64,000 bases of DNA. Origin: Clostridia bacterium (GTDB taxonomy: Bacteria; Bacillota; Peptococcia; DRI-13; UBA5745). The stretch lies in NCBI GenBank assembly GCA_018434325.1, contig JAHDPO010000007.1, positions 266,210 through 330,209 of the forward strand. Direction: 5' to 3'. Of this stretch, positions 5,127-45,821 are shown one piece after another; positions within the stretch are counted from its first letter, which is position 1, and each line of letters opens with the position of its first letter. The position numbers and the translations under genes are program-made. The notes beneath the pieces were generated by a model. The model had not been told where the DNA came from and searched no databases. It was given only the letters and a program-made list of their open reading frames with translations.

Positions 5127-6191
5127 ATGTATACAACCGATACGATCCTTGACGTGCCCGGCCTGCTGGTGGGTCAGGCCCAAAACAAGACAGCCCTGAC
5201 CGGTATCACCGTGCTGCTGGCTCCCGCAGGAGCAGTAACCGGCGCCGATTTGCGGGGCGGCGGCAGCGGCACTCGGGAGCTTAATCTCTTTGACCCCGGC
5301 ACCACCACAGATCAGGTCCATGCCGTAGTTTTATCCGGCGGTTCCGCCTTTGGCCTGGATGCCGCCGGCGGCGTTATGGCCTGGCTGGAGGAAAAAGGCA
5401 TTGGCTTTGATACGGGTGTAGCCAGAGTGCCTTTGGTTCCGCAAGCTATTTTATTCGATTTAGGTATAGGGGACAGCCGCATTCGCCCTGATCAGGCCAT
5501 GGCCAGAGAGGCCTGCCAACAGGCTACCGCCGACGGCCGGGAATTGGCCCAAGGCAACTATGGCGCCGGCTGCGGCGCGACCATAGGCAAGCTGCGCCAA
5601 GGCCGGGGCGCCATGAAAAGCGGTATCGGCTCCGCGTCGCTGCGGTTAGCTAACGGTTTTACCGTGGGCGCCATCGTGGCCGTCAATGCTTTAGGTGACG
5701 TCTACGAGGGAGGCCGGATCATTGCCGGCATGTTGGCTACAGATACGACTACAGCTACAGATAGGGCTGCCGCCGCGGCTGACGGGACGGCGCCCCTGCC
5801 CTCCGATGGGGCGGCGCCGCTTTTTGCCGACAGCAGCCGCTGTCTTTTGGCAATGGGCGCCGGTATCGCCGCCGGCCAGCCTTCCAATGCTCCTGCCTTC
5901 GGCGGCAACACCACCATCGGCATTATCGCCTGCAACGGCAGCTTCACAAAAGTCCAGTGCAACAAGATTGCAGCTATGGGTCACAACGGCATGGCCAGGG
6001 CAATCCGGCCCATACACACCACCATGGACGGCGATATGCTTTTTGCTTTAGCTACCGGCGACATGGCCGTCCCCTTGGATGTAGCCGGCGAGATGGCCGC
6101 TATTGTTGTCGAGAGAGCCATTATCAAAGCCGTCAAGGCGGCAGCCCCTGCCGGCGGCTTGCCCTCCTGGCAAAGCTTCGGCCTCAAATGA
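5127..6191 (+). CDS. P1/S58-family peptidase (DmpA-type L-aminopeptidase/D-esterase)
   Basis: GITVLLAP...DLRGGGSGTRELNLFDP...HAVVLSGGSAFGLDAAGGVMAWLEEKGIGF matches the DmpA signature. It contains a Thr/Ala-rich low-complexity insert. Confidence 0.7.
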   Translation: MYTTDTILDVPGLLVGQAQNKTALTGITVLLAPAGAVTGADLRGGGSGTRELNLFDPGTTTDQVHAVVLSGGSAFGLDAAGGVMAWLEEKGIGFDTGVARVPLVPQAILFDLGIGDSRIRPDQAMAREACQQATADGRELAQGNYGAGCGATIGKLRQGRGAMKSGIGSASLRLANGFTVGAIVAVNALGDVYEGGRIIAGMLATDTTTATDRAAAAADGTAPLPSDGAAPLFADSSRCLLAMGAGIAAGQPSNAPAFGGNTTIGIIACNGSFTKVQCNKIAAMGHNGMARAIRPIHTTMDGDMLFALATGDMAVPLDVAGEMAAIVVERAIIKAVKAAAPAGGLPSWQSFGLK

Positions 6192-11895: not shown

Positions 11896-12165
11896 AAAAA
11901 AATAGATCGTGGAGAGAGCCACGATCCGGTGAAAACAGCAGAAGCATCCACCGGATACGTAATTCTACGCAGTCCGGCGGAGCGGTTTCACCTCTGTCCT
12001 TTTGCCTGAGAGATTAACGGAATTACATTCCGTGTTGCACCTTCGGCCCTCGCAATCGAGCTTCTCCAGAGTCACATCTGTGCACAGTCTTCATCCCTTG
12101 AGGGACACCTGAGAGTTTTACTCCTTCGGCAAACCGGATATGGTTACTTTCCTGCGCACTTCATC
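11896..12165 (-). ncRNA. Glycine riboswitch (tandem aptamers) with intrinsic-terminator expression platform
   Basis: Minus-strand reading gives aptamer 1 (...CCGAAGGAGUAA...CUCUCAGGUG...) and aptamer 2 (CUCUGGAGAAG...GCCGAAGGUGCAAC...CUCUCAGGCAAAAGGACAGAG, fwd 11991-12071). A terminator follows: stem GATCGTGG/CCACGATC at 11905-11926 plus U7. It lies immediately 5' of the AGCS symporter. Confidence 0.75.
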
Positions 12166-34482: not shown

Positions 34483-36036
34483 CTATTCTTCAAAGCCTTC
34501 CTTATACAGAACCGTCCGGTTGCGCCCCTGCCCCTTTGCCTGATACATGGCCTGATCCGCATAGCGGATGGTGGCTTCAAAGCCCCGCTCATGCCTGCCG
34601 GCTGCCACGCCGAAGCTGGCAGTGACGGCTATTGCCGTATCCTGATAAACCACAGGCTGCCCTTCTATGCATTGCCGCAGGCGCTCCGCCAGATATACCG
34701 CCGCCTTCTCGCCCGTATCCGCCGCCAGGATGATAAACTCCTCACCGCCGTAGCGGGCCAGCAAATCATAGGATCGCAAGGCTTTTTTTATCCTTGCCGA
34801 TATCACTTTTAAAACCTGATCCCCCGCCTCATGGCCGTAAGTATCATTCACTCGTTTAAAATGATCCAGATCAAACAAAATAAGACAATAGGGACTCCAT
34901 TTCCGCTTAACCATAGCATCATGGCGCTCCGCCAGCTCCTGAAAATAACGGCGGTTAAAAAGGCCTGTAAGACCGTCGGTATGGGCTACTTCCTCCAAGC
35001 GGTCAAGCAGCATTACCGTATCGGTAATATCCCGGATCAGGATAACCCAACCCTTCAATTTGCCTTTGGGATTGTATAGTCCATTCAGCGTAGTGTTATA
35101 ATGCCGGATCTGCTCTTCTGCCGGCTTGAGCCGGAAATTAGCCTCCCGGGTCTGAGCGCTGAGACAGTGCCTGCTTAACTCTTCCGGCCAATCATTGATC
35201 AAGGTAACGTCACTGCCTTTTGCCAGGACCTGCAGCTGAGGGAAAATACCGTAGGCGGCAGGATTAGCGCTGAGAAACCCCATATCTCCATCCACTAAAA
35301 TAAAAGCCTCCCCCACCACATCCAAAGCGATGGCAGAGCCTTGAGGGATGATGTCGAATAAATCATAGCGCATAATATTGATGTAGAAAAAAACATTCAG
35401 CACCGCCAAAGACAGCGGCGTGTAATTGATCCCTAAGGTATCGACTTTCAAAACAAACAGGATATCGGCCGTCACCGGCATCAAAGCGCCCACCAGGAGC
35501 AGCACCAACTGGCTTCTGTACTTCTGATGCCAGCTGCCCAGCCTGCCGGCCAGGATGAGACAAGCCAATGCCATACAAAGCAAGCTGTAAAAATGATTGA
35601 TATAATAAAGCCGCCCCGGCGTCACCTCCAAATAGGGAACCGGTGCAACCACATTATACTGATAAGCAGTATAGATTAATCCGTGCAGGTTTGTGGTCCA
35701 AAGCAATACTACCACGGCCACCGGAACGACCAGCAGCAGGGCAATGACGGCGGGTCTGTTCCAGGTGCTTTCACAATAATCGGACACAAAGAGCAAATAT
35801 AGGGGGGCAATGAAAGCCGCACCCAGGTACATCACCTTCAACGCCGTAAAACCGGCGCTGGTATTGCCTGCCGTAACCTCCAGCAGATAGCCTAAAGCAA
35901 AAAGAAATACCGCCGTATCCAGTACGATAAAATAGCCTCTTTTGGCGCTGCGGCAACAGAACATGGTGAAAACGCCAAGAAAAACCGTGATGATCAAAGC
36001 AGCCACCATAATACAGGCGACAATCAGTTTTACCAC
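34483..36036 (-). CDS. Membrane sensor diguanylate cyclase (multi-TM N-domain - PAS - GGDEF)
   Basis: 7-8 TM, then RYGGEEFIILA (GGEEF), RxxD I-site present. Confidence 0.85.
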   Translation of the reverse strand: MVKLIVACIMVAALIITVFLGVFTMFCCRSAKRGYFIVLDTAVFLFALGYLLEVTAGNTSAGFTALKVMYLGAAFIAPLYLLFVSDYCESTWNRPAVIALLLVVPVAVVVLLWTTNLHGLIYTAYQYNVVAPVPYLEVTPGRLYYINHFYSLLCMALACLILAGRLGSWHQKYRSQLVLLLVGALMPVTADILFVLKVDTLGINYTPLSLAVLNVFFYINIMRYDLFDIIPQGSAIALDVVGEAFILVDGDMGFLSANPAAYGIFPQLQVLAKGSDVTLINDWPEELSRHCLSAQTREANFRLKPAEEQIRHYNTTLNGLYNPKGKLKGWVILIRDITDTVMLLDRLEEVAHTDGLTGLFNRRYFQELAERHDAMVKRKWSPYCLILFDLDHFKRVNDTYGHEAGDQVLKVISARIKKALRSYDLLARYGGEEFIILAADTGEKAAVYLAERLRQCIEGQPVVYQDTAIAVTASFGVAAGRHERGFEATIRYADQAMYQAKGQGRNRTVLYKEGFEE

Positions 36037-36174
36037 ACCAGTTCTTCCTCTCAGGTTGATTTACCAAGCGCCTGCCATATCGCCGCGCTGCATTTTTACG
36101 ACATATAGCACCTTTATTTACCATTATAGCATATTTATTAGTAATTGGGAATCATTATTGTTTCCTGCGGAGAT

Positions 36175-36220
36175 AAAAAAACCATGGATCGATGGTGCAA
36201 AACCAACCCATGGTTTTTTT
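36175..36220. terminator. Intrinsic terminator
   Basis: A6-ACCATGG-N20-CCATGGT-T7; directly 3' of the small basic ORF. Confidence 0.6.
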
Positions 36221-36221
36221 G

Positions 36222-36371
36222 CTATTTATCATTACCCGGTTTATGGCGGCTGCCGGATTGATTTTTGGCGTTGCGGCTTTCACCGTCCAAAGCGCTTTCT
36301 GCCATGGTAGGGCCGCCCTTGGCCTTCTTCTTGCGGATTTCCTTAGGATCGATCTGACTGTCTTTGGCCAT
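36222..36371 (-). CDS. Small basic protein, 49 aa (possible minor small acid-soluble spore protein)
   Basis: MAKDSQIDPKEIRKKKAKGGPTMAESALDGESRNAKNQSGSRHKPGNDK, with SD GGAGGA 13 nt upstream. Not in the ORF track (shorter than the cutoff). Overlaps the tlp 3' end by 29 nt. Confidence 0.35.
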   Translation of the reverse strand: MAKDSQIDPKEIRKKKAKGGPTMAESALDGESRNAKNQSGSRHKPGNDK

Positions 36372-36573
36372 AAGAAGACTCTTCCTCCATCTCCCGGGCC
36401 ATTTGCGGAATGGCCTGGGCCCGCCGCTGATTTTTGGCGGCCAGCTCTTTTTTCATTTTCTCATCCGAGGTCTTCTGAATCATCTCTTCGGCCAGCTCCA
36501 TATTTCTCTTTGTGTCCTTAATGGTTTCCTTAATTTTTTGGGCATTGTCGCATCTGTTATCGGGTTTGCTCAT
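36343..36573 (-). CDS. tlp: Small acid-soluble spore protein Tlp-like
   Basis: MSKPDNRCDNAQKIKETIKDT...EEMIQKTSDEKMKKE resembles the Tlp N-terminus (PNPDDRSDNVEKLQ). SD AAGGAGGA upstream. Confidence 0.5.
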   Translation of the reverse strand: MSKPDNRCDNAQKIKETIKDTKRNMELAEEMIQKTSDEKMKKELAAKNQRRAQAIPQMAREMEEESSYGQRQSDRS

Positions 36574-36858
36574 GATTTACTCCTCCTTGAATCATTTAGG
36601 TGATTGCGTGATTATTGCCTGATTATTGTTTGATTAAGGCTCAAGGTTTATACGGCTTAAATGGTTGAGAAATTGACCAGACAGGGAGCTATTTGTGCAA
36701 AAATTACGTTTGTATGCAATTAGCCGGCGTGAATCTGCACACAAACGAAAAAATTGTACAGAAACTGCCCTGGCTCCGAGAGGTCACTGCCCCCGCCGCC
36801 AAGACCTCGGCCTGGATTCGCACTCTCGGTGAAAGAGCGCTTGATGGAATTTTTTTTA

Positions 36859-36887
36859 TTGACAACCTAAAAATGGGGTGCTATATT
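36859..36887 (+). promoter_or_regulatory. Sigma-A promoter of the aro-pheA operon (TTGACA-17-TATATT)
   Basis: TTGACA 36859-36864, TATATT 36882-36887. Confidence 0.6.
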
Positions 36888-36917
36888 AAAAAATAAGAAA
36901 TTTAAGGCGGTTGCATT

Positions 36918-37034
36918 ATGTCTGACCTTCGTTGCTCCACAACTGAATTCCTGTTTAGCTTTAGCCAGAGCTTTAGCTTTGGCTATTTTTGCTGTGGAAA
37001 AACGAATAAAGGATATGGATCGTCGTCGTCCTGA
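36918..37034 (+). CDS. Phe/Tyr-rich leader peptide (38 aa) of a putative ribosome-mediated attenuator
   Basis: MSDLRCSTTEFLFSFSQSFSFGYFCCGKTNKGYGSSSS. That is 6 Phe and 2 Tyr, with 6 Phe in a 14-residue run. SD AAGGCGG 8 nt upstream. Stop TGA at 37032-37034. Confidence 0.6.
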   Translation: MSDLRCSTTEFLFSFSQSFSFGYFCCGKTNKGYGSSSS

Positions 37035-37065
37035 TATGATTGAAATGAAATGTAGTGATCATTGA

Positions 37066-37102
37066 GCGGTGGGATTCAGCAAAGGAATCCCACCGCTTTT
37101 TT
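37066..37102 (+). terminator. Attenuator intrinsic terminator between leader ORF and aroB
   Basis: GCGGTGGGATTC-agcaaag-GAATCCCACCGC (12-bp perfect stem) + T6, 31 nt after the leader stop and 38 nt before aroB ATG. Confidence 0.75.
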
Positions 37103-37140
37103 GTATAAGCATGATATTAAGAGTTTGGAGGAATCGGCTT

Positions 37141-38214
37141 ATGATACAGCTTGATATTAACCTGCCGGGCCGCAGTTATCCCATCCTGATCGGGGAAAAT
37201 ATCCTGCAAGAACAGTCCCGGGTTTTAGCCAGCTATTGCCCCGGCGGTATGGCAGCAGTGGTGTCCGACGAAAAAGTCTGGTCCCTGCATGGCCCTTATC
37301 TGGAAGAAATCTTAAAGGGTCTGGGGCTGGCCTATACTGCCGTGATCATCCCCCAGGGGGAAACCAGCAAATCTCTGGCCATGCTGGAAAAGCTGTACAA
37401 AGAATTTTTTCGCTGCGGCTTAAAGCGCCTCCATGCTGTGCTTGCCTTCGGCGGCGGCGTCACCGGCGATCTGGCAGGCTTTGCCGCCTCCACTTACATG
37501 CGGGGCCTGCCTTTTATCCAGATTCCCACCACTCTTTTATCTCAGGTGGACTCCAGTGTCGGCGGCAAGGTGGCCGTCAACCTGGAGGAAGGAAAAAATT
37601 TGGTGGGCAGCTTCTATCAGCCTGATCTGGTGCTGGCTGACACAGGCCTTTTGGCAAGCCTGCCTCAGCGGGAATGGCTGTCGGGCCTGGCGGAAGTAGT
37701 CAAATATGCCGCTATCGGTGAAGAAAGCCTGATCCCCCTCCTGAAAAGTCCTGAAACAATCCGGCAAAATCTCGAGCAAATCGTTTATCTCTGCTGTAAG
37801 CGAAAGGCTTATTATGTGGAAAAAGACGAGCGCGATACGGGCGACAGGATGTTCCTTAATTTCGGCCATACCTTCGGCCATGCCATTGAGAAATATCATG
37901 ATTACCAAAAGTATAATCATGGGGAAGCTGTAGCCATCGGTATGGCCCTGGCCGCCCGCACCGGCGAGCTATTGGGTCTCAGCCGAGACGGTGTTGCGGC
38001 AGCCCTGGCGGGGATTATGGACCAGGCAGGGCTTTCTTACGTCCTTGACGACGACCTGCAAGAAATCATCCCTTTGATGACGGGGGACAAAAAAAATCAA
38101 AGCAGTGAAATTACTCTGGTGCTGCTGCAAAGGCTGGGATGCCCCTTCCTTCACGCCATCAGCCAGCAAGAGCTTCTACATCTGTTAAAGGAGGCGGTAT
38201 CAAGCCATGCATAG
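37141..38214 (+). CDS. aroB: 3-dehydroquinate synthase
   Basis: MIQLDINLPGRSYPILIGENIL...; glycine-rich NAD loop GGGVTGDLAGF; HTFGHA. The track start GTG 37069 lies inside the terminator, so ATG 37141 is used. Confidence 0.85.
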   Translation: MIQLDINLPGRSYPILIGENILQEQSRVLASYCPGGMAAVVSDEKVWSLHGPYLEEILKGLGLAYTAVIIPQGETSKSLAMLEKLYKEFFRCGLKRLHAVLAFGGGVTGDLAGFAASTYMRGLPFIQIPTTLLSQVDSSVGGKVAVNLEEGKNLVGSFYQPDLVLADTGLLASLPQREWLSGLAEVVKYAAIGEESLIPLLKSPETIRQNLEQIVYLCCKRKAYYVEKDERDTGDRMFLNFGHTFGHAIEKYHDYQKYNHGEAVAIGMALAARTGELLGLSRDGVAAALAGIMDQAGLSYVLDDDLQEIIPLMTGDKKNQSSEITLVLLQRLGCPFLHAISQQELLHLLKEAVSSHA

Positions 38215-39412
38215 CAAAGCCAGAAAGGTTGCCGGGTTCCCTGCCGGCTCCATCAAAATGCCACCCTCAAAAAGCATATCCCACCGGGCCGTCATCTGCG
38301 CCGGCCTGGCGGCAAGTTCCCTGCCTATCGATAATCTCGTTTATTCCCAGGATATTGAGGCCACCAGCCGCTGCATGAAACTCATCCGCCAGCCCGGCGC
38401 CCTTCTTGATTGCGGTGAATCCGGTTCCACCCTCCGCTTTCTGATTCCCCTGGCGGCGGCCTTGACGGGCAAGACCGCCTTTACCGGCCAGGGCCGGCTT
38501 TTGGCCCGGCCCCAAGGGCCCTATATCGAGGCTTTGGCCGGTCACGGCATAACCCTTGAGTATACGGATAACCTGCTCCGGCTGGAAGGCAGTCTCAAAT
38601 CCGGCTTATATACCCTTCCCGGCGACGTCAGTTCTCAATTTATCTCTGGCCTGCTCTTTGCTCTGCCTTTAGTGGCCGGGGAAAGTGAAATAGTGGTCAC
38701 CAGCCCCTTGCAATCCAAAGCCTACGTAGATCTGACCATCGACGTAATGGACCACTTCGGCGTCAGCGTTCAGCATGAGGATTACCGGCGCTTTAAAGTG
38801 CCGGGAGGACAGCAATATAAAAGCCGGCCTTTCACCGTAGAAGGCGATTATTCCCAGGCCGCTTTTTTTCTGGCGGCAAGCGCCTTGGGCAGCCAGTGCC
38901 AATGCCTCGGCCTTTCCCCCCATTCCAGGCAAGGCGATAAAAAAATCCTGGATATTCTCCGGGCAAGCGGCGTCGATTTGGAATGGAGTCCCGCAGGCGG
39001 GGTGACCGCCAAAGCCGGCCCTCTGCCCTATAAAGCTCAGACCGTCGATATTGCGGAAATTCCCGATTTGGTTTCGCCCTTAGCCGCCTTTTTCTGCTTC
39101 TGTCAGGGCCAAAGCCGCATTGAAAACGGCGCCCGCCTAAGGCTCAAAGAAAGCGACAGGCTGGCCACCGTTACGGAAGAGCTGAATAAGCTGGGGGCCC
39201 GGATCACCATTGAAGGAGACGCTCTGGTTATCAATGGTGTGGAAACGCTGGCCGGCGGCAGAATCAGCGGCCGGGGAGATCACCGCATTGCCATGATGGG
39301 CGCGGTGGCGGCAGTCAGAAGCCGGGGACCGGTTTATATTGAAGATAGCGGCTGTGTCGCTAAATCCTACCCTCACTTTTGGGAGGATTTTGAAAAGGAG
39401 AAGCGGTTATGA
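38207..39412 (+). CDS. aroA: 3-phosphoshikimate 1-carboxyvinyltransferase (EPSP synthase)
   Basis: PPSKSISHRAVICAGLA...; EPSPS fold, 401 aa; overlaps aroB by 8 nt. Confidence 0.85.
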   Translation: MHSKARKVAGFPAGSIKMPPSKSISHRAVICAGLAASSLPIDNLVYSQDIEATSRCMKLIRQPGALLDCGESGSTLRFLIPLAAALTGKTAFTGQGRLLARPQGPYIEALAGHGITLEYTDNLLRLEGSLKSGLYTLPGDVSSQFISGLLFALPLVAGESEIVVTSPLQSKAYVDLTIDVMDHFGVSVQHEDYRRFKVPGGQQYKSRPFTVEGDYSQAAFFLAASALGSQCQCLGLSPHSRQGDKKILDILRASGVDLEWSPAGGVTAKAGPLPYKAQTVDIAEIPDLVSPLAAFFCFCQGQSRIENGARLRLKESDRLATVTEELNKLGARITIEGDALVINGVETLAGGRISGRGDHRIAMMGAVAAVRSRGPVYIEDSGCVAKSYPHFWEDFEKEKRL

Positions 39413-40476
39413 GCAATGTTTGGGGACAAAGGATCAAGGTTAGTATATTCGGGGAATCTCACGGTCCGGCCATCGGCGTCACAATAGGCGGCCTGCCTCC
39501 CGGCTTTCCTGTCGATTGGGCCAAGGTGAGTGCGGCAATGGCCCGCCGGGCGCCGGGGTCGGGGGATATTGCTACTCCCAGGCAAGAGAAAGACCAATGG
39601 GAAATCCTCTCCGGCATGATGGAGGACAAAACCAGCGGCGCTCCCCTTTGCGCCATTATCCGCAATCAGGATACCCGCTCCCGGGATTACAACCCCCATC
39701 TTTTACGGCCCGGCCATGCCGACTACACCGCCTGGGTCAAATACAAAGGCTTTAACGATTACCGGGGGGGCGGCCATTTTTCCGGCCGGCTCACCGCCTG
39801 CCTGGTTTTTGCCGGAGCCATTGTCCAGCAGATCCTGGAGAGCCGGGGCATCAGCCTTGGGGGTCGGATTTCCAGCATCCATAATATAGCCGACAGTCCC
39901 GGCGAGCCGGAGGAGATGGCGGCGCTGACCGCCAAAGCTTTTCCCGTATTCGATGAGGCCGCAGGACTTAAGATGAAGGAAGCTATTTTGCGGGCTAAGG
40001 CAGACGGCGATTCCCTGGGGGGGATCATCGAATGCGCCGCCTGGAACCTGCCGGCGGGACTGGGAGAGCCCTTCTTCGATTCTGCGGAAAGCGTGATTTC
40101 TGCCATGATGTTTTCCATCCCCGGTATTAAAGGCATTGAATTCGGCGACGGCTTCCACCTGACAACAATGACAGGTTATGGCGCCAATGACCAGCTGGAA
40201 ATCAGCGGGGATCGTATCCGGCTGAAAAGCAATCACAACGGCGGCATCAACGGCGGCATCACCAACGGTAATCCTCTGGTTTTCCGCCTGGCCGTCAAGC
40301 CTACCCCCACTATTCACAAAAAACAAACCACGGTGGACATCGCAAAAATGGAGACTACGGAAACCTCCTTCGGCGGCCGCCATGATCCCTGCATCGTACC
40401 CAGAGCTTTGCCGGCAGCCCTGAGCGCTTTGGCCCTTTGCCTGCTGGACCTTCTTTTGATGAATGATGCCTGTTAA
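39409..40476 (+). CDS. aroC: Chorismate synthase
   Basis: FGESHGPAIGVTIGGLPPG; GRHDPCIVPRA. Confidence 0.9.
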   Translation: MSNVWGQRIKVSIFGESHGPAIGVTIGGLPPGFPVDWAKVSAAMARRAPGSGDIATPRQEKDQWEILSGMMEDKTSGAPLCAIIRNQDTRSRDYNPHLLRPGHADYTAWVKYKGFNDYRGGGHFSGRLTACLVFAGAIVQQILESRGISLGGRISSIHNIADSPGEPEEMAALTAKAFPVFDEAAGLKMKEAILRAKADGDSLGGIIECAAWNLPAGLGEPFFDSAESVISAMMFSIPGIKGIEFGDGFHLTTMTGYGANDQLEISGDRIRLKSNHNGGINGGITNGNPLVFRLAVKPTPTIHKKQTTVDIAKMETTETSFGGRHDPCIVPRALPAALSALALCLLDLLLMNDAC

Positions 40477-40539
40477 AATCCAATTCATGATCAAGCTTTA
40501 ATAAAACTTTGATAAACATAGAGAAAAGAGGAATGGCAA

Positions 40540-41544
40540 ATGATTATTATTCTCAAACCCGGCACCGAACCGGCCGAAAGGGAGCCTATCGAAAAATTGC
40601 TGATCAGCAAAGGTATCATCGTCCAAAATATTCTGGGCGAATCCACCAGCATGATCGGCATGGCCGGCGACACCTCCAGCATATCCGAGGACACGATTTT
40701 GCGCTTTCCCTGCGTGGAGCGGGTGCTGCGGGTTAAAGAGCCCTATAAGCTGGCCGGCCGCAAGTTTCATCCTGCCGACAGCACTTTTGATATCTGCGGC
40801 CGCAAAATAGGAGGCGGTGAGTTTACCGTCATTGCCGGGCCCTGTTCCGTGGAAAGCGAAGAGCAGATTCTCTCCATTGCCCGCGACGTCAAAATGTCGG
40901 GAGCCGGCTTCTTACGGGGCGGCGCTTTCAAGCCGCGGACCTCTCCTTATGCTTTCAAAGGCTTGGGTCTGGATGGCCTGGAGCTATTGAAGATCGCCAG
41001 GGAAAAAACAGGGCTGCCCATCGTTACGGAAATCATGTCGCCGGAATATCTCGACGCCTTTGCCGAAGACGTAGATATTATCCAAATCGGCGCCCGCAAT
41101 ATGCAGAATTTCACCCTGCTCTCCCAAGTCGGCGCTTTGGGCAAGCCGGTATTATTGAAGCGGGGCCTTTCTTCCACCATCGACGAATTGCTGATGGCAG
41201 CGGAGTACGTCATGGCCGGCGGCTCCCAACAGGTCATTCTCTGCGAGCGGGGTATCCGCACCTTTGAGACGGCTACCAGAAATACGCTGGATCTTTCGGC
41301 AGTACCTGTGCTTCATGCCAAATCTCACTTGCCGGTGATCATCGATCCCTCCCATGCCACAGGTTACTGGCATTTGGTGGAGCCCATGGCTTTGGCTGCC
41401 GTAGCGGCGGGAGCCGACGGCCTGATCATCGAGGTGCACAACCATCCCGAAGCCGCCCTTTGCGACGGCGCTCAGTCCGTAACGCCTCAGGTTTTCCATC
41501 GCATCATGGATAAGGTGAAGAAGATCCGGGAGATTATTGCCTGA
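40540..41544 (+). CDS. 3-deoxy-7-phosphoheptulonate (DAHP) synthase, type I-beta with N-terminal ferredoxin-like regulatory domain
   Basis: N-terminal ~70 aa FL/ACT-like domain; catalytic motifs IAGPCSVES, GAFKPRTSPY, IQIGARNMQN. Confidence 0.85.
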   Translation: MIIILKPGTEPAEREPIEKLLISKGIIVQNILGESTSMIGMAGDTSSISEDTILRFPCVERVLRVKEPYKLAGRKFHPADSTFDICGRKIGGGEFTVIAGPCSVESEEQILSIARDVKMSGAGFLRGGAFKPRTSPYAFKGLGLDGLELLKIAREKTGLPIVTEIMSPEYLDAFAEDVDIIQIGARNMQNFTLLSQVGALGKPVLLKRGLSSTIDELLMAAEYVMAGGSQQVILCERGIRTFETATRNTLDLSAVPVLHAKSHLPVIIDPSHATGYWHLVEPMALAAVAAGADGLIIEVHNHPEAALCDGAQSVTPQVFHRIMDKVKKIREIIA

Positions 41545-41612
41545 TCAGCCATTGATACCTGTAATACCCACTAAAAAATGATAAAAATTTATATCAGGAA
41601 GGATGATTAAAT

Positions 41613-42743
41613 ATGAATAACAAAGAAAAATTAGAGGTTTTGCGTCAGGACATCGACAGTGTCGACCGGGAGCTGGTGACCCTTTTCGGCAAACGGATGA
41701 ACGCCGTCAAGGAGATTGGCCGGATAAAGACGGAAGGCAATATGGCTATTCTCGATAAAGACCGGGAGCAAAAGGTTATTGAAAAAGCCCTGGCCCTGGC
41801 TGATGACGAGTTGAAAGCTGAAACCATTTCTTTCATGAGAACCCTGATGGCTTTGTCGAAAATGAAGCAATCGAAGGATATGAGCATGACCAGCCCCGTG
41901 GATTTCCCTGCTTCTGCTGCGAAAAAGACGGAAAATATCAAGGTAGCCTACCAGGGCGTCACCGGCGCCTGGAGTCAACAGGGAGCCGTCCGTCTCTTCC
42001 CGCAAGCCGAGCTTTGCCAATTCGAGTATTTTGAAGACGTCTTCAATGTGGTAAAATCAGGAGGAGCCGACTACGGCGTTTTACCTATTGAAAATTCTCA
42101 AACCGGCGCCATCGGCGAAGTTTACGACCTGTTGAAAAAGCATTCCTGCTATATTGTGGGCGAGGTCTGGATCACCATTGCCCAGTGCCTGCTGGCTACT
42201 CAAGGCACTGAGCTGGCCGATATCCGGGAGGTTTTCTCCCACCCCGAAGGCTTCGGCCAAAGCCGCCGCTTCCTCAAAGGCAAAAACTGGGATCTGACAG
42301 CCTGCCGCAACACTGCCGTAGCCGCGCAAATGGTGGCTGAGAAAAACAGCCCCAAATATGCTGCCATCGGTTCCCGCCAGGCAGCGCAAGCCTACGGTCT
42401 GAACGTGTTAGTTCCCGATATCATGGACAGCGCCAACAATAAAACCCGCTTCATCGTTATTGCCGGCCAGCCCATTTACGATGAAAGCTGCAGCATAACC
42501 AGCGTTACTTTCTCCACCGCGCATAAAAGCGGCGCTCTCTGTGCCGTTTTGGAAAGCTTCATGCTGGCCGGCATCAACCTGACCAGGATCGAGTCCCGGC
42601 CCGTCAGCCAGGATCGTTACCGCTTCTTTGCCGATCTGCAGACCAATATCCTTGCCGAATCTACCCGTGACGCTTTGAGTCAGGCAGCCACCCAATGCGA
42701 TTATTTCGAGGTTTTAGGCTGCTACTCTACTACAGAAGAATAA
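41613..42743 (+). CDS. pheA: Bifunctional chorismate mutase / prephenate dehydratase (P-protein) with ACT domain
   Basis: CM_2 helix LRQDIDSVDRELVTLFGKRM; PDT domain KVAYQGVTGAWS...TRF; C-terminal ACT. Confidence 0.85.
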   Translation: MNNKEKLEVLRQDIDSVDRELVTLFGKRMNAVKEIGRIKTEGNMAILDKDREQKVIEKALALADDELKAETISFMRTLMALSKMKQSKDMSMTSPVDFPASAAKKTENIKVAYQGVTGAWSQQGAVRLFPQAELCQFEYFEDVFNVVKSGGADYGVLPIENSQTGAIGEVYDLLKKHSCYIVGEVWITIAQCLLATQGTELADIREVFSHPEGFGQSRRFLKGKNWDLTACRNTAVAAQMVAEKNSPKYAAIGSRQAAQAYGLNVLVPDIMDSANNKTRFIVIAGQPIYDESCSITSVTFSTAHKSGALCAVLESFMLAGINLTRIESRPVSQDRYRFFADLQTNILAESTRDALSQAATQCDYFEVLGCYSTTEE

Positions 42744-42747
42744 TGCC

Positions 42748-43260
42748 GTGAAAAATATTGCTTTTATCGGTTTGCCCGGCTGCGGCAAAACCACAGTCTC
42801 CCAAAAGGTTGCCGCAGCCTTGGGCCGGGCCTGGTACGACAGTGATCTGGAAATTGAGACGCGGGCAGGGATGAGTATTCCGCAGATTTTTGCCGAAAAA
42901 GGCGAGGAATATTTTCGCAGCCTGGAAAGCCAATGCATCGCCGGCCTGATAGCCAAGGAACCGGCGGTGATTGCCTTAGGTGGCGGGGCCGTGCTGCGTA
43001 ACGGCGGCTTAATTAAGGATAATGCCATTGTCATCTATTTGAGCCGTGATGCAAAAAGCATCTTAGCCACGCTGCCGCCGGGCTCCCGGCCTTTGCTGGC
43101 AGGCAAGCCCCCCGAGGAAACCCTGGCGGCTTTGCAAGCCCTTTATGAACAGCGGCGGCAGCTTTACGAAAGCCTGCAGGATATTAAAATCGACAACGAA
43201 GGTTCCATTGAAGAAGCAGTGGAAAAAGTCCTGAATGCATTGGAAATATTGGAAGCATAG
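42748..43260 (+). CDS. aroK: Shikimate kinase
   Basis: Walker A GLPGCGKTT; 170 aa. Confidence 0.85.
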   Translation: MKNIAFIGLPGCGKTTVSQKVAAALGRAWYDSDLEIETRAGMSIPQIFAEKGEEYFRSLESQCIAGLIAKEPAVIALGGGAVLRNGGLIKDNAIVIYLSRDAKSILATLPPGSRPLLAGKPPEETLAALQALYEQRRQLYESLQDIKIDNEGSIEEAVEKVLNALEILEA

Positions 43261-43274
43261 GAGGTATCGGTGCT

Positions 43275-43808
43275 ATGGGGAGCATGGATTCTGCGGAAAA
43301 GTTGAATAATACGGCCGGCATTGGCGGCATCGCCGTCAGATTGCTGGTGATTAACGGACCTAACCTTAACCTGCTGGGCCGGCGGGAACCGGATGTCTAC
43401 GGCCGCCAAACTTACGAGGATTTAGTGAGACTAATCAAAGAGCAAGCGGCACAGAAGGGTCTGGAGGTTGCCATCTGTCAAAGCAACCATGAGGGAGAAA
43501 TCATTGACGCCATTCATCAGGCCACCGGCAAGTATGACGGCCTGGTCATCAATCCCGGCGCCTACACGCATTACAGCTATGCCATCTTCGACGCCATTAA
43601 AGCCGTCGGCCTCCCTGCCGTGGAAGTGCATCTCTCCAACATTGCCGCCCGAGAGGAGTTCAGACGCCATTCGGTAACCGCCGCCGCTTGCCTGGGGCAA
43701 ATCAGCGGCCTGGGCTTCCACGGCTATCTGGCCGCCATGGATTATCTGGCTGGGCGCTTGGCAAGCCGAGGTGGCGCCGGCGCCGGCAAGGCGGCAGCCG
43801 ATGAATAG
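43275..43808 (+). CDS. aroQ: Type II 3-dehydroquinate dehydratase
   Basis: LLVINGPNLNLLGRREPDVYG...HLSNIAAREEFR; N- and C-terminal extensions relative to the canonical ~150 aa. Confidence 0.85.
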   Translation: MGSMDSAEKLNNTAGIGGIAVRLLVINGPNLNLLGRREPDVYGRQTYEDLVRLIKEQAAQKGLEVAICQSNHEGEIIDAIHQATGKYDGLVINPGAYTHYSYAIFDAIKAVGLPAVEVHLSNIAAREEFRRHSVTAAACLGQISGLGFHGYLAAMDYLAGRLASRGGAGAGKAAADE

Positions 43809-44664
43809 CGGCAGCGGCACTATCACCGGCGCCACCAGGCTGCTGGCCGTGATCGGCCACCCCGTCAGCCATAGCCTGTCGCCCCAGATCCACAACCGGT
43901 TTGCTGCCTCTTTGAATCTGTCTTACGCCTATTTAGCCTTTGACGTTACCCCGGAAACATTGCCGGATTTCATGGCAGCGGCCCGCTCCCTGAATATTGC
44001 AGGCTTCAATGTGACCATGCCCTTAAAAAGCCTCGTCCTCCCCCAATTGGACGAAATAGCTGCCAGCGCTGATTTGTATGGAGCGGTCAACACCGTCGTC
44101 TATAGGGAAGGCAGATTCAGCGGCCACAATACCGACGGCCAAGGCTTTCTGCTGTCCCTGGCTCATGCCGGCCTTGATCCGGCCAAAGCTAACGCCCTGA
44201 TTCTGGGCGCCGGCGGCGCTGCCAGAGCTGTAGCCATGGCCCTGCTGCAAAAGGGCGCCCGGGTGCAGCTTGCCTGCCGCCGCCCGGACAAAGCTCTTTC
44301 TTTGGAAGGTGCGGCCTATTGTTCTTGGAGCGAAATTGCAAACATCATCGAGGCTGAAGACTGCAATCTGCTGATTAACGCTACGCCTCTGGGCATGGAG
44401 GGCAGTTCCCCTTCCGGCGGTCCGGATGAGAGCGGTAATTTTACGGATCTCTCCTTCCTTAACAGCCTCAGACCCGGCGCTTTAGTCTACGATTTAATTT
44501 ACGCTCCCCGGGAGACTCTCTTGCTGCATCAAGCCAAAGCCAAGGGCTTTGCCGTCATGAATGGCTTAGCCCATCTCGTCTGCCAAGCTGCCTTGTCCTT
44601 TGAGTTCTTTACCGGCCAGGCGCCTGGCCGGGATACCATAGCGGAATTAATCTCCTCACTATAA
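43801..44664 (+). CDS. aroE: Shikimate dehydrogenase
   Basis: LLAVIGHPVSHSLSPQIHN; GAGGAARAV. ATG 43801 overlaps the aroQ stop (ATGAATAG). Confidence 0.85.
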   Translation: MNSGSGTITGATRLLAVIGHPVSHSLSPQIHNRFAASLNLSYAYLAFDVTPETLPDFMAAARSLNIAGFNVTMPLKSLVLPQLDEIAASADLYGAVNTVVYREGRFSGHNTDGQGFLLSLAHAGLDPAKANALILGAGGAARAVAMALLQKGARVQLACRRPDKALSLEGAAYCSWSEIANIIEAEDCNLLINATPLGMEGSSPSGGPDESGNFTDLSFLNSLRPGALVYDLIYAPRETLLLHQAKAKGFAVMNGLAHLVCQAALSFEFFTGQAPGRDTIAELISSL

Positions 44665-44671
44665 CGTATAT

Positions 44672-44697
44672 GCCGGCAACGCCGGCTTTCTTTTTAT
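44672..44697 (+). terminator. Intrinsic terminator of the aro-pheA operon
   Basis: GCCGGC-aac-GCCGGC + TTTCTTTTT; its T-tract overlaps the convergent rsgA stop codon. Confidence 0.65.
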
Positions 44698-45821
44698 CTT
44701 CCTTTATTTTTTTGCCGGAAATGGTCCCTCATTCTTTTCATCTCAGCCATTCCGCCAAACATCGCATTGATTTTCTCCGCTTCGATCTCTTTAGAGGAAA
44801 GACCGTCGTACCTGGCTTCCTTTTTCAACTTCTGATAGCTCTCCAGACGCCGGCTGTCCAGCTCCCCCGTTTCCAAAGCCCGGCGCACAGCGCAGCCCGG
44901 CTCTGTCGTATGGCCGCAATCCCGAAAGCGGCATTGCCCGACTAATTCGTCTATATCGGCAAAGGATTTGGATAAATTGACAGCCTCCACCCCCAGTTCG
45001 CGCATGCCCGGCGTATCAATAACAATACCGCCCTGGGGCAAAACCAGCAGCTCTCTGCGGGTGGTTGTGTGCCGGCCTTTATCCTCCCAGCCGATGTCCC
45101 CCGTGGCCAAAAGCTTTTCTCCCGCCAGTTCATTGATCAGCGTGGATTTGCCTACGCCGGAAGAACCGATGAAGGAGGCAGTGATCCCCGGCTGTAAATA
45201 AGGCAGCAGCCTGTGGCAAGAAGCCCGGTCATAACCTGAGGTGGTGATTACGTCGGCGCCGGCGGCAATCCCGGAGACCTCCAAAGTAACGCCGCTTAAA
45301 TTTTCACAAAGATCGGCTTTGGTCAATACGACTACAGGTGTGGCGCCGCTGCTCCAGGCCACCGCCAAATAGCGCTCCAGCCGACTTAAGTTGTAGTCAT
45401 TATTTAAAGCCATACAAATGAACACTATGTCAATATTAGCGGCTACCACCTGCCTTTGCTGACCGGTGCCGGCGGCGGTACGTTCAAAAGCACTTTTACG
45501 GCTTAACACCTGCTGGATAATAGCGTTGCCGCCACTTCCACCATTGCCGCCGCCATCGCCGGGACTGCCGCCGCTGCCGCCCTTAGGGAGATCGGCCAGG
45601 ACAAAATCGCCTACGGCAGGATATTCCGCCAACTCCTTTACCTTATAGCGAAATTTCCCGGAGATTTCCGCCAGATACTCCCCTTCCTTCGTTACTATCT
45701 TATATAGGTCTTTATATTGTGAAACCACTCTCCCCAGACACCAGCCGGAATAAAGAGCCGCTTCCTCAAAATGCTGCTGGCTTGCACCGTAGCGAATTAA
45801 TTGATTCAACATTGTTCGCAC
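44694..45821 (-). CDS. rsgA: Ribosome small-subunit-dependent GTPase A (RsgA/YjeQ) with a Gly-rich insertion
   Basis: VVLTKADL, GSSGVGKSTLINEL, zinc knuckle CRFRDCGHTTEPGCAV; insert KGGSGGSPGDGGGNGGSGGN. Confidence 0.85.
   Translation of the reverse strand: MRTMLNQLIRYGASQQHFEEAALYSGWCLGRVVSQYKDLYKIVTKEGEYLAEISGKFRYKVKELAEYPAVGDFVLADLPKGGSGGSPGDGGGNGGSGGNAIIQQVLSRKSAFERTAAGTGQQRQVVAANIDIVFICMALNNDYNLSRLERYLAVAWSSGATPVVVLTKADLCENLSGVTLEVSGIAAGADVITTSGYDRASCHRLLPYLQPGITASFIGSSGVGKSTLINELAGEKLLATGDIGWEDKGRHTTTRRELLVLPQGGIVIDTPGMRELGVEAVNLSKSFADIDELVGQCRFRDCGHTTEPGCAVRRALETGELDSRRLESYQKLKKEARYDGLSSKEIEAEKINAMFGGMAEMKRMRDHFRQKNKGR

Follow-up and report, generated by a model that had tools for sequence, protein, structure and literature searches.

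Our analysis of a 64,000-nucleotide stretch of genomic DNA from a Clostridia bacterium (contig JAHDPO010000007.1, positions 266,210 to 330,209; the whole stretch is referred to below as the window) points to a regulatory leader in front of aroB, the first of eight co-directional genes for the shikimate pathway and for phenylalanine biosynthesis. The leader contains a short open reading frame (ORF) rich in phenylalanine and tyrosine codons and ends in an intrinsic terminator, and it is very likely to act as a ribosome-mediated (leader-peptide) transcription attenuator that ties the operon to the supply of charged tRNAs for Phe and Tyr, and in some relatives probably for Trp as well. This interpretation had been put forward in an initial annotation of the window, and it is supported here by the conservation of the leader, by its association with aromatic amino acid (aro) operons and by a complementarity, seen at the level of the family, between a candidate antiterminator strand and the terminator.

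Anatomy and recurrence of the leader

All parts of the leader lie on the forward strand of the window and were found as the initial annotation had described them. A sigma-A-type promoter (36859-36887, with TTGACA at 36859-36864, a 17-nt spacer and TATATT at 36882-36887) matches the consensus at 11 of 12 positions, carries an extended -10 element (TGC-TATATT, the TG at 36879-36880) and is the top promoter-like site in a scan of 36000-45500. The leader ORF (36918-37034) begins with an ATG at 36918, located 31 nt downstream of the -10 element and preceded by a Shine-Dalgarno (SD)-like AAGGCGG at 36904-36910, and comprises 38 codons plus the stop codon TGA (37032-37034), the encoded peptide being MSDLRCSTTEFLFSFSQSFSFGYFCCGKTNKGYGSSSS. 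Codons 11-24 (36948-36989) constitute the putative regulatory run (F L F S F S Q S F S F G Y F) with six Phe codons and one Tyr codon, and a second Tyr is found downstream at codon 33. The intrinsic terminator, i.e. the candidate attenuator, occupies 37064-37102; its core of 12 perfect Watson-Crick pairs (GCGGTGGGATTC/GAATCCCACCGC) can be extended to a 14-bp stem with a 7-nt loop (37064-37098), which is followed by a run of six U residues ending at 37102. Since 38 nt, the SD sequence of aroB included, are all that separates the U-run from aroB, and no plausible promoter is found in between, aroB has no independent promoter. The real start of aroB is the ATG at 37141 with GGAGG in front of it (37127-37131), and a public protein that is 100% identical to the AroB of the window (P0001, 357 aa) starts at this very codon; the GTG at 37069 is merely the mechanical longest-ORF start, and the earlier suspicion of a mis-call was justified.

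The putative target operon spans 37141-44664 on the forward strand. In agreement with the gene content proposed initially, Pfam assigns its eight genes to aroB, aroA, aroC, DAHP synthase, pheA, aroK, aroQ and aroE, which together cover all seven steps of the shikimate pathway plus pheA, the latter encoding a chorismate mutase-prephenate dehydratase (CM_2+PDT). A terminator-like site (44672-44686) follows the last gene.

The window sequence taken alone is only suggestive: the leader RNA has a folding z-score of -5.75 against shuffled sequences, and eight of its 38 codons are aromatic as compared to 6.7% in the proteins of the operon itself (binomial P = 3e-3), but when the bases of the U-rich ORF are shuffled, at least eight aromatic codons turn up in 4.6% of trials (P = 0.046). 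The decisive support is comparative. Thirteen leaders were compared, representing twelve lineages plus the near-identical locus L001. In the two closest loci, L001 and L002, the leader (from the -35 element to the U-run) is 96.3-98.0% identical to that of the window, as compared to 81.5% for the adjacent aroB coding DNA (64-65% at third codon positions; 86% for the AroB protein), while the 100 nt upstream of the -35 element show an identity of ~51%, which is the random level. Judged by these identities, the leader is under selection. The promoter is unchanged in both loci but for one base of the spacer, further single-base changes fall just 5' of the ATG and into the gap between stop codon and terminator, and one U-A pair of the terminator stem has become U-G. 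Restricted to L001 are a Cys6Arg replacement and the loss of one Ser codon. The sole amino acid change common to L001 and L002 is Cys25 to Trp (TGC to TGG), by which a Trp codon comes to end the aromatic run.

AroB-based locus searches of genome and metagenome collections returned these two close relatives, the remainder being at most 45% identical and without the leader. By means of a protein database and contig look-ups, six more aroB-led lineages with a homologous leader were reached (L090/L091, L092, L093, L094, L096 and L097; AroB 55-66% identical). Searching 1.84 billion representatives with a profile of the leader peptide itself yielded 17 clusters at E<=1e-3, and a 90%-identity cluster set gave 52 at E<=1; none of the matched clusters bears a functional name, and two are labelled 'hypothetical protein'. 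Five genomic contexts were found by the peptide searches alone (L098, L099, L100-L102, L103-L104 and L105-L106), and in each of the five the ORF immediately precedes an aro operon led by DAHP synthase (DAHPS), in the gene order DAHPS-tyrA-aroB-aroA-aroC(-pheA) or DAHPS-pheA. Eight lineages have aroB as the first gene behind the leader, and five have DAHP synthase; as far as these loci go, the element keeps to the leading gene of the aromatic operon, regardless of which gene this is. In L095 (AroB protein P0011), where aroB is internal to the operon and located behind tyrA, there is no leader. When 107 loci, the window included, were scanned for the motif in six frames, the peptide core was recovered solely in these leaders, once per locus and upstream of the operon, and not in the AroB loci of other phyla. 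Promoters like that of the window precede the leader in L090, L092, L093, L094, L096, L100, L103 and L106, and a terminator is located 16-33 nt past the leader stop codon in all 13 leaders.

Some observations on single loci should be mentioned. In L103/L104 the DAHP synthase has been called from position 5158, inside the leader and upstream of the leader terminator (5173-5193); a plausible start is the ATG at 5228 behind AGGAGGA, and the over-extension is akin to the GTG start at 37069 of the window. In the gut-metagenome lineage L100-L102, the leader terminator and the start of DAHP synthase lie ~240 nt apart (about 5170-5417), and this spacer carries further GC-rich hairpins (around 5250-5345), which could be a second regulatory element in series. 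In the window, a mini-ORF (37036-37065; ATG ATT GAA ATG AAA TGT AGT GAT CAT TGA) begins one base past the leader stop codon and ends inside the base of the terminator stem. With no SD sequence, and with no counterpart in L090, L092 and L093, it was dismissed as probably fortuitous.

Covarying helices and selection on aromatic codons

Two helices lie within the leader ORF. Helix P4, seen in the folds, pairs UCCACA (36936-36941) with UGUGGA (36993-36998) and encloses the regulatory codons. Hairpin P6 is located inside the codon run (36962-36990) and consists of UAGCCAGAGC-UUUA-GCUUUGGCUA (36962-36985) followed by UUUUU, a combination that scored as terminator-like. P6 was found in 12 of 12 leaders at -10.4 to -15.6 kcal/mol (-6.1 in L096), in 11 of them none of 300 shuffles was as stable, and it is always trailed by a UAYUUU-like sequence. 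The codons for S-Q-S and for S-F-G make up its two arms, and the peptide motif G-Y-F, which is nearly invariant, is encoded by GGN UAY UUU, i.e. the 3' end of P6 plus the U-rich tail. Compensatory changes in P6 include AGCC/GGCU to AACC/GGUU in L090 and CCAG/UUGG to CCGU/ACGG in L100; in the latter, Gln has become Val (CAG to GUU) together with a change of the partner codon from Phe to Tyr (UUU to UAC), whereby both the pairing and the aromatic identity have been kept. In P4, four of six pairs are changed on both sides (e.g. CCACA/UGUGG to CCGCA/UGCGG), and in the terminator helix this holds true for nine of 14 pairs across the family. For P4, P6 and the terminator taken together, 90.2% of the alignment cells are paired as compared to 39-50% in slid controls, and sixteen pairs show compensatory changes, a result matched by none of 500 shuffles. 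These counts were obtained on an unrefined MAFFT alignment in which the 5' parts of L098 and L099 and part of P4 are misaligned, and they are therefore conservative.

A third pairing is less uniform. In the minimum-free-energy fold of the window, 36906-36912 and 36917-36923 pair with 37011-37024 (helix P1/P2), where 36906-36912, as the 5' side of the long-range helix P1, overlaps the SD-like sequence of the leader ORF, and P1 also shows in the minimum-free-energy folds of several leaders. From these folds P1 might be hypothesized to sequester the ribosome binding site (RBS). A universal SD-sequestering P1 was rejected, since the helix stands out significantly in just two leaders, L094 (z = -3.1) and L097 (z = -4.9), and is not above shuffles elsewhere, the window included. 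A NusG-type TTNTTT pause motif after P6, looked for by eye, is exact in some members only (L090, L103 and L106, with TTATTT) and absent in the window (CTATTT), and it was not used as evidence.

Selection on the reading frame is visible next to selection on structure. All 13 leaders have retained the start codon and an open frame, of 31-52 codons, as expected from the initial annotation, and this in spite of N- and C-terminal ORF parts that are fully divergent and of variable length. In the eleven leaders tabulated for the purpose of counting, a purine-rich SD-like motif precedes the start codon by 8-15 nt, and frame 0 contains 8-12 Phe, Tyr or Trp codons as compared to 2-7 in frames +1 and +2, which usually carry stops. 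The six codons 5' of P6 are aromatic in 48 of 78 cases with all five codons in use (UUU, UUC, UAU, UAC and UGG), and the unpaired codons of the P6 loop are aromatic in 22 of 24 cases by means of four codons (UUU, UUC, UAU and UAC). Trp codons are also present in the leaders of L094, L096, L097 and L106. At unpaired positions, substitutions swap one aromatic residue for another, and in the codon of the 3' arm of P6 that adjoins the loop the first base, next to the loop, varies freely (giving Ser, Cys, Gly or Arg). Because the loop codons stay aromatic and the loop-adjacent codon varies, selection acts on the identity of the aromatic codons and not on the nucleotide string or on the peptide.

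At the peptide level, the core is well preserved even across clusters sharing less than 50% identity (S-Q-S and C-C-G are common next to the nearly invariant G-Y-F), and this is unusually high conservation for an attenuator leader. It would suit a nascent-peptide sensor like TnaC, SecM or the Erm leaders, in which the core ...FSQSF(Y)FSFGYFCC... halts elongation from within the exit tunnel, perhaps under the influence of free aromatic amino acids, and in which a shortage of charged tRNA is not what is sensed. We regard such a sensor as unlikely. Nearly all conserved non-aromatic residues are encoded by nucleotides paired in P6 or P4, the residues that do change come with compensatory partners (Ser to Asn with GGC to GGU; Gln to Val with UUU to UAC), and the loop-adjacent residue is free. 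RNA pairing plus selection on aromatic codons thus accounts for the conservation of the peptide.

The reverse scenario takes the ORF as a by-product of a U-rich conserved sequence and the P4-P6 domain as a riboswitch-type or a protein- or tRNA-binding RNA, which binds its ligand (an aromatic amino acid, an intermediate of the pathway or a regulatory protein) and controls the terminator. The high degree of structure, the covariation of P4 and P6 and the exact coincidence of the S-Q-S and S-F-G codons with the two P6 arms are in accord with this scenario, and so is the almost complete nucleotide conservation in close relatives, which extends to the untranslated 29 nt between the stop codon and the terminator. 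We nevertheless consider it improbable, because it would not explain why the start codon and open frame are kept in 13 of 13 leaders, and a purine-rich motif in front of the start in all eleven tabulated ones, while both ends of the ORF diverge. Aromatic codons, moreover, are enriched in frame 0 alone and are exchanged for one another at unpaired positions, the distance from stop codon to terminator is held within narrow limits, and no Rfam model matches.

Gene callers predict the ORF as a protein of 40-52 aa in dozens of assemblies, and together with two adjacent Cys residues and a strong terminator of its own this could be taken to indicate an independent small-protein gene (e.g. for a hydrophobic/aromatic peptide, or a precursor of a bacteriocin or of a peptide that is made by the ribosome and modified after translation, RiPP) that has its own promoter and terminator and is unrelated to aro control. 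Such a gene is very improbable, since in 13 of 13 contexts the ORF is located directly upstream of, and co-directional with, an aro operon whatever its first gene, the 38-nt gap between the terminator and aroB is too short and without a plausible promoter, no modification or export genes adjoin the ORF in the contexts listed, and the C-terminal half of the peptide is not conserved.

Rfam covers leader families for Phe, Trp, His, Leu and Thr as well as the Lactococcus leu/phe leader. None of these, and none of the 4227 Rfam models altogether, matched the leader of the window (36600-37300, E<=10) or those of eight homologous loci (E<=1), with the weak matches to Xoo2, Yfr19 and MicF reflecting the terminator or the P6 hairpin only. 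A divergent T-box leader that would directly sense tRNA-Phe or tRNA-Tyr in the uncharged state, and for which the approximate length (~205 nt), the terminal terminator and the amino acid genes of a Firmicute would be right, can be dismissed with near certainty, given that the same searches yielded no T-box match in the leader of the window or in those of the eight relatives, that they did detect a T-box elsewhere in L096 (i.e. the method works), and that neither a T-box sequence in the antiterminator region nor a specifier-loop/K-turn architecture was seen upon inspection of the Rfam alignments and folds. The T-box match of L096 (663-906, reverse strand; E = 9e-15; 75.6 bits, under the gathering score of 93) belongs to the strand opposite to the aro leader and is located upstream of the divergent gene beside it.

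A candidate antiterminator and the proposed mechanism

The end of the leader ORF (region 2; codons 32-38, 37011-37030) can pair either with the SD/start region (via 37011-37024) or, as a candidate antiterminator, with the 5' arm of the terminator (via 37015-37030). In nine leaders the last 30 nt of the ORF plus the following 17 nt were compared with the terminator 5' arm. Duplexes of region 2 with the cognate arm have a mean energy of -15.2 kcal/mol as compared to -11.9 kcal/mol for non-cognate arms, and 54 of 20000 permutations reach the cognate mean. In L094, L096, L097, L098 and L099 the duplex is clearly more stable than expected (z = -3.5 to -5.5), and the complementarity covaries with wholly different terminators, e.g. 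AUUCAAUGAGCC with GGUUCAUUGAA in L098 and GAAAGCCCGUU with GAUGGGCUUUC in L099. A candidate for the mutually exclusive antiterminator that the initial annotation called for is thus recovered at the level of the family, where its position does not change (the ORF's last ~30 nt) and it covaries with the terminator, but the window itself offers a weak example of it.

On this basis a mechanism can be proposed for the attenuator. Transcription would start ~7 nt past the -10 element (near 36894), and a ribosome would load at the leader RBS with the polymerase still in the leader, where P6 and its U-rich tail may hold the polymerase in the meantime. With ample aromatic aminoacyl-tRNAs the ribosome would pass codons 11-24, reach the stop codon at 37032 and cover region 2 (37011-37030); as the stop codon precedes the terminator by 16-33 nt, a terminating ribosome would cover region 2 and not the terminator. 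The terminator (37064-37102) would then form, and transcription would stop before aroB. If aromatic aminoacyl-tRNAs are scarce, the ribosome would stall in the Phe/Tyr run, melt P6 and P4 and leave region 2 free, and free region 2 (in the window possibly 36942-36951, see below) would capture the 5' arm of the terminator once made, with read-through into aroB-aroE as the consequence. Without translation, the SD/start region would pair with region 2 (P1/P2) and the terminator would form, such that the default state would be off.

Folding models with the ribosome represented as an occupied stretch agree in part with this scheme. With a ribosome on the aromatic codons and the 3' arm of the terminator still untranscribed, the antiterminator forms in the model, which in L090, L094 and L097 requires an occupied RBS as well. 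With a ribosome at the stop codon, the modelled probability of pairing between region 2 and the terminator arm is 0-0.07 in seven of nine leaders, the window included, and in L099 the probability of the terminator rises from 0.35 to 0.86.

Several findings weigh against the attenuator. In the window, the duplex of region 2 with the terminator (37015-37030) is weak (-11.1 kcal/mol, z = -0.9) and contains many G-U pairs, and the best complement to the terminator arm is not region 2 but an alternative strand at 36942-36951 (ACUGAAUUCC), which would pair with the 5' arm plus loop (GGGAUUCAG). The latter duplex reaches -15.5 kcal/mol as compared to a best value of -12.9 +/- 1.8 kcal/mol in shuffles, and modelling one stalled ribosome together with an occupied RBS allows it to form; the strand is not clearly conserved beyond the clade of the window. 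In L100, L103 and L106, the most distant members, the complementarity of region 2 is not above shuffles. At equilibrium the terminator of the window wins in every modelled ribosome state (P = 0.96), and any switch must therefore be kinetic and co-transcriptional, a kind of switch on which equilibrium folding is uninformative. Two things are also left unexplained by the simple model: the hairpin made of regulatory codons is conserved more than any other part of the family, and the leader nucleotides are nearly invariant between close relatives. Finally, transcription and translation have been reported to be largely uncoupled in Bacillus subtilis, and for this reason synchrony between ribosome and polymerase in a Firmicute would need a pause.

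P6 might provide such a pause. Pause-assisted ribosome-dependent attenuators have been described in B. subtilis, and pausing at P6 would be a parallel to these. Based on its fold and on the U-rich tail, we propose P6 as an RNA polymerase pause hairpin; it could serve for pausing or act as a weak first terminator within the leader ORF. Going one step further, and with little confidence, one may speculate that P6 and its U-rich tail, in several members together with the RBS-sequestering helix, make up a dedicated pause-and-release device that retains RNA polymerase until a single pioneer ribosome has come up and allows for one round of sensing, with Phe, Tyr and Trp integrated by the codon run, or, alternatively, that the core is a nascent-chain arrest sequence. 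If the pause-and-release device were real, Firmicutes would have in it a built-in means of coping with the lack of transcription-translation coupling reported for them.

Genomic surroundings and related control systems

Upstream of the leader, divergent genes encode a Tlp small acid-soluble spore protein and a GGDEF protein (Pfam). The neighbouring Tlp gene fits a spore-forming Firmicute host, and the closest genomes are metagenome-assembled genomes labelled Clostridiales or Clostridia. Between the Tlp gene and the leader promoter lies a stretch of ~190 nt (36655-36850) that is missing in the close relatives L001 and L002. It holds an imperfect 40-nt inverted repeat (36679-36718/36736-36775, 70% complementary), its fold is not clearly above shuffles (z = -1.7), and the stretch might stem from a small insertion or be what is left of an element. 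Far away from the leader, a glycine riboswitch aptamer is located at 11984-12079 on the reverse strand (57.9 bits with a gathering score of 32; E = 2.3e-9), the sole above-threshold Rfam match in the whole window.

The initial annotation had likened the leader to the proteobacterial pheA/pheST attenuators, and with a promoter, an RBS-equipped short ORF, codons for the end product and a terminator before the first gene this architecture is indeed found. The layout is the same as in Escherichia coli pheL-pheA and pheST (the trpL/hisL/leuL class, as outlined in PMC11802643), including the predicted alternative pairing of the terminator 5' arm. There is no homology in sequence or structure to the E. 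coli pheL-type leaders, as judged from the lack of an Rfam match, and the differences are substantial. In the window family the codon run mixes Phe, Tyr and sometimes Trp, alternating with Ser, Gln or Gly instead of being consecutive; the conserved hairpin is made of the regulatory codons themselves; and the putative competitor of region 2 is the RBS/start region, not the region of the regulatory codons. Moreover, the element of the window would control the whole common pathway plus pheA, and its host is a spore-forming Clostridia-type Firmicute.

Control of aromatic amino acid genes in Firmicutes is better known from T-box leaders, TRAP or protein repressors. The corresponding statement of the initial annotation, that leader peptides are best known from Proteobacteria and T-box or TRAP control from Gram-positives, stands as a general rule but needs to be qualified, since aromatic precedents do exist in Gram-positives (aroR of Corynebacterium glutamicum and the uORFC-13-1 candidate of Acholeplasma). 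In C. glutamicum, the aroR leader peptide with its Phe-Tyr-Phe motif is located upstream of aroF and mediates attenuation, with induction by Phe limitation (Neshat et al. 2014, as summarised in PMC11802643). According to this summary it shares with the window family a Gram-positive host, the use of Phe plus Tyr codons and the attenuation of a DAHP synthase operon. It differs, by the same description, in belonging to the Actinobacteria and in having three regulatory codons as compared to 8-12, and the conserved core motif with an embedded hairpin is a further distinction of the window family. The relation is an analogy of function, and homology across the phyla is unlikely.

A further match by description is the uORFC-13-1 motif (Brewer et al. 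2021, PMC8632094), a candidate attenuator with an upstream ORF (uORF) that was found exclusively upstream of aroF. It has -35 and -10 elements, an RBS, a start codon, a Phe-coding U-run, an intrinsic terminator and 'another base-paired substructure', and it was reported from 24 sequences of Acholeplasma and environmental origin with 'at least one' Phe codon. Compared by description only, it fits the members led by DAHP synthase (L098-L106), and P6 could be its extra substructure; the copy in the window, in contrast, precedes aroB and not aroF. Set beside each other in this way, uORFC-13-1 may be the same family or a sister family.

Ribosome-mediated transcription attenuation that senses amino acids also occurs in Firmicutes, as in the Leu-rich leader of Streptococcus leuA (PMC5314783), and leader-peptide attenuators of branched-chain operons have been outlined for Staphylococcus aureus ilv-leu (Leu-rich leader, PMC5794164) and Listeria ilv (PMC5864092). 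These branched-chain attenuators sense another amino acid, and their sequences are unrelated to those of the window family. T-box leaders (Rfam RF00230) share the position, i.e. a 5' leader ending in a terminator, and probably the physiological signal (tRNA charging), but they sense by direct binding of tRNA, whereas the window leader would sense via the ribosome, and neither T-box features nor a model match were found in it. 'Putative attenuators' have furthermore been listed before aromatic supraoperons of some Firmicutes (Merino database, PMC1173090) as unspecified terminator/antiterminator predictions. Our own literature searches on the peptide motif strings and on aro leader peptides in Clostridia found nothing specific. 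The principle has long been known; what is added is a conserved leader family of Clostridia for which we found no description, no Rfam model and no functional name of the peptide.

In practical terms, the family corrects start-codon mis-calls (the DAHP synthase of L103/L104 and the mechanical GTG 37069 ORF), and deletion of the attenuator is an obvious route to deregulated aromatic production in metabolic engineering. If uncoupling holds in Firmicutes generally, an attenuator with a pause-like hairpin would be a convenient natural system for studying ribosome-polymerase synchrony. The leader also adds a well-populated family (>50 peptide clusters) to the short list of Gram-positive leader peptides that sense amino acids, and it would explain the control of the whole aromatic pathway in poorly studied, mostly uncultured Clostridia, gut-metagenome lineages included.

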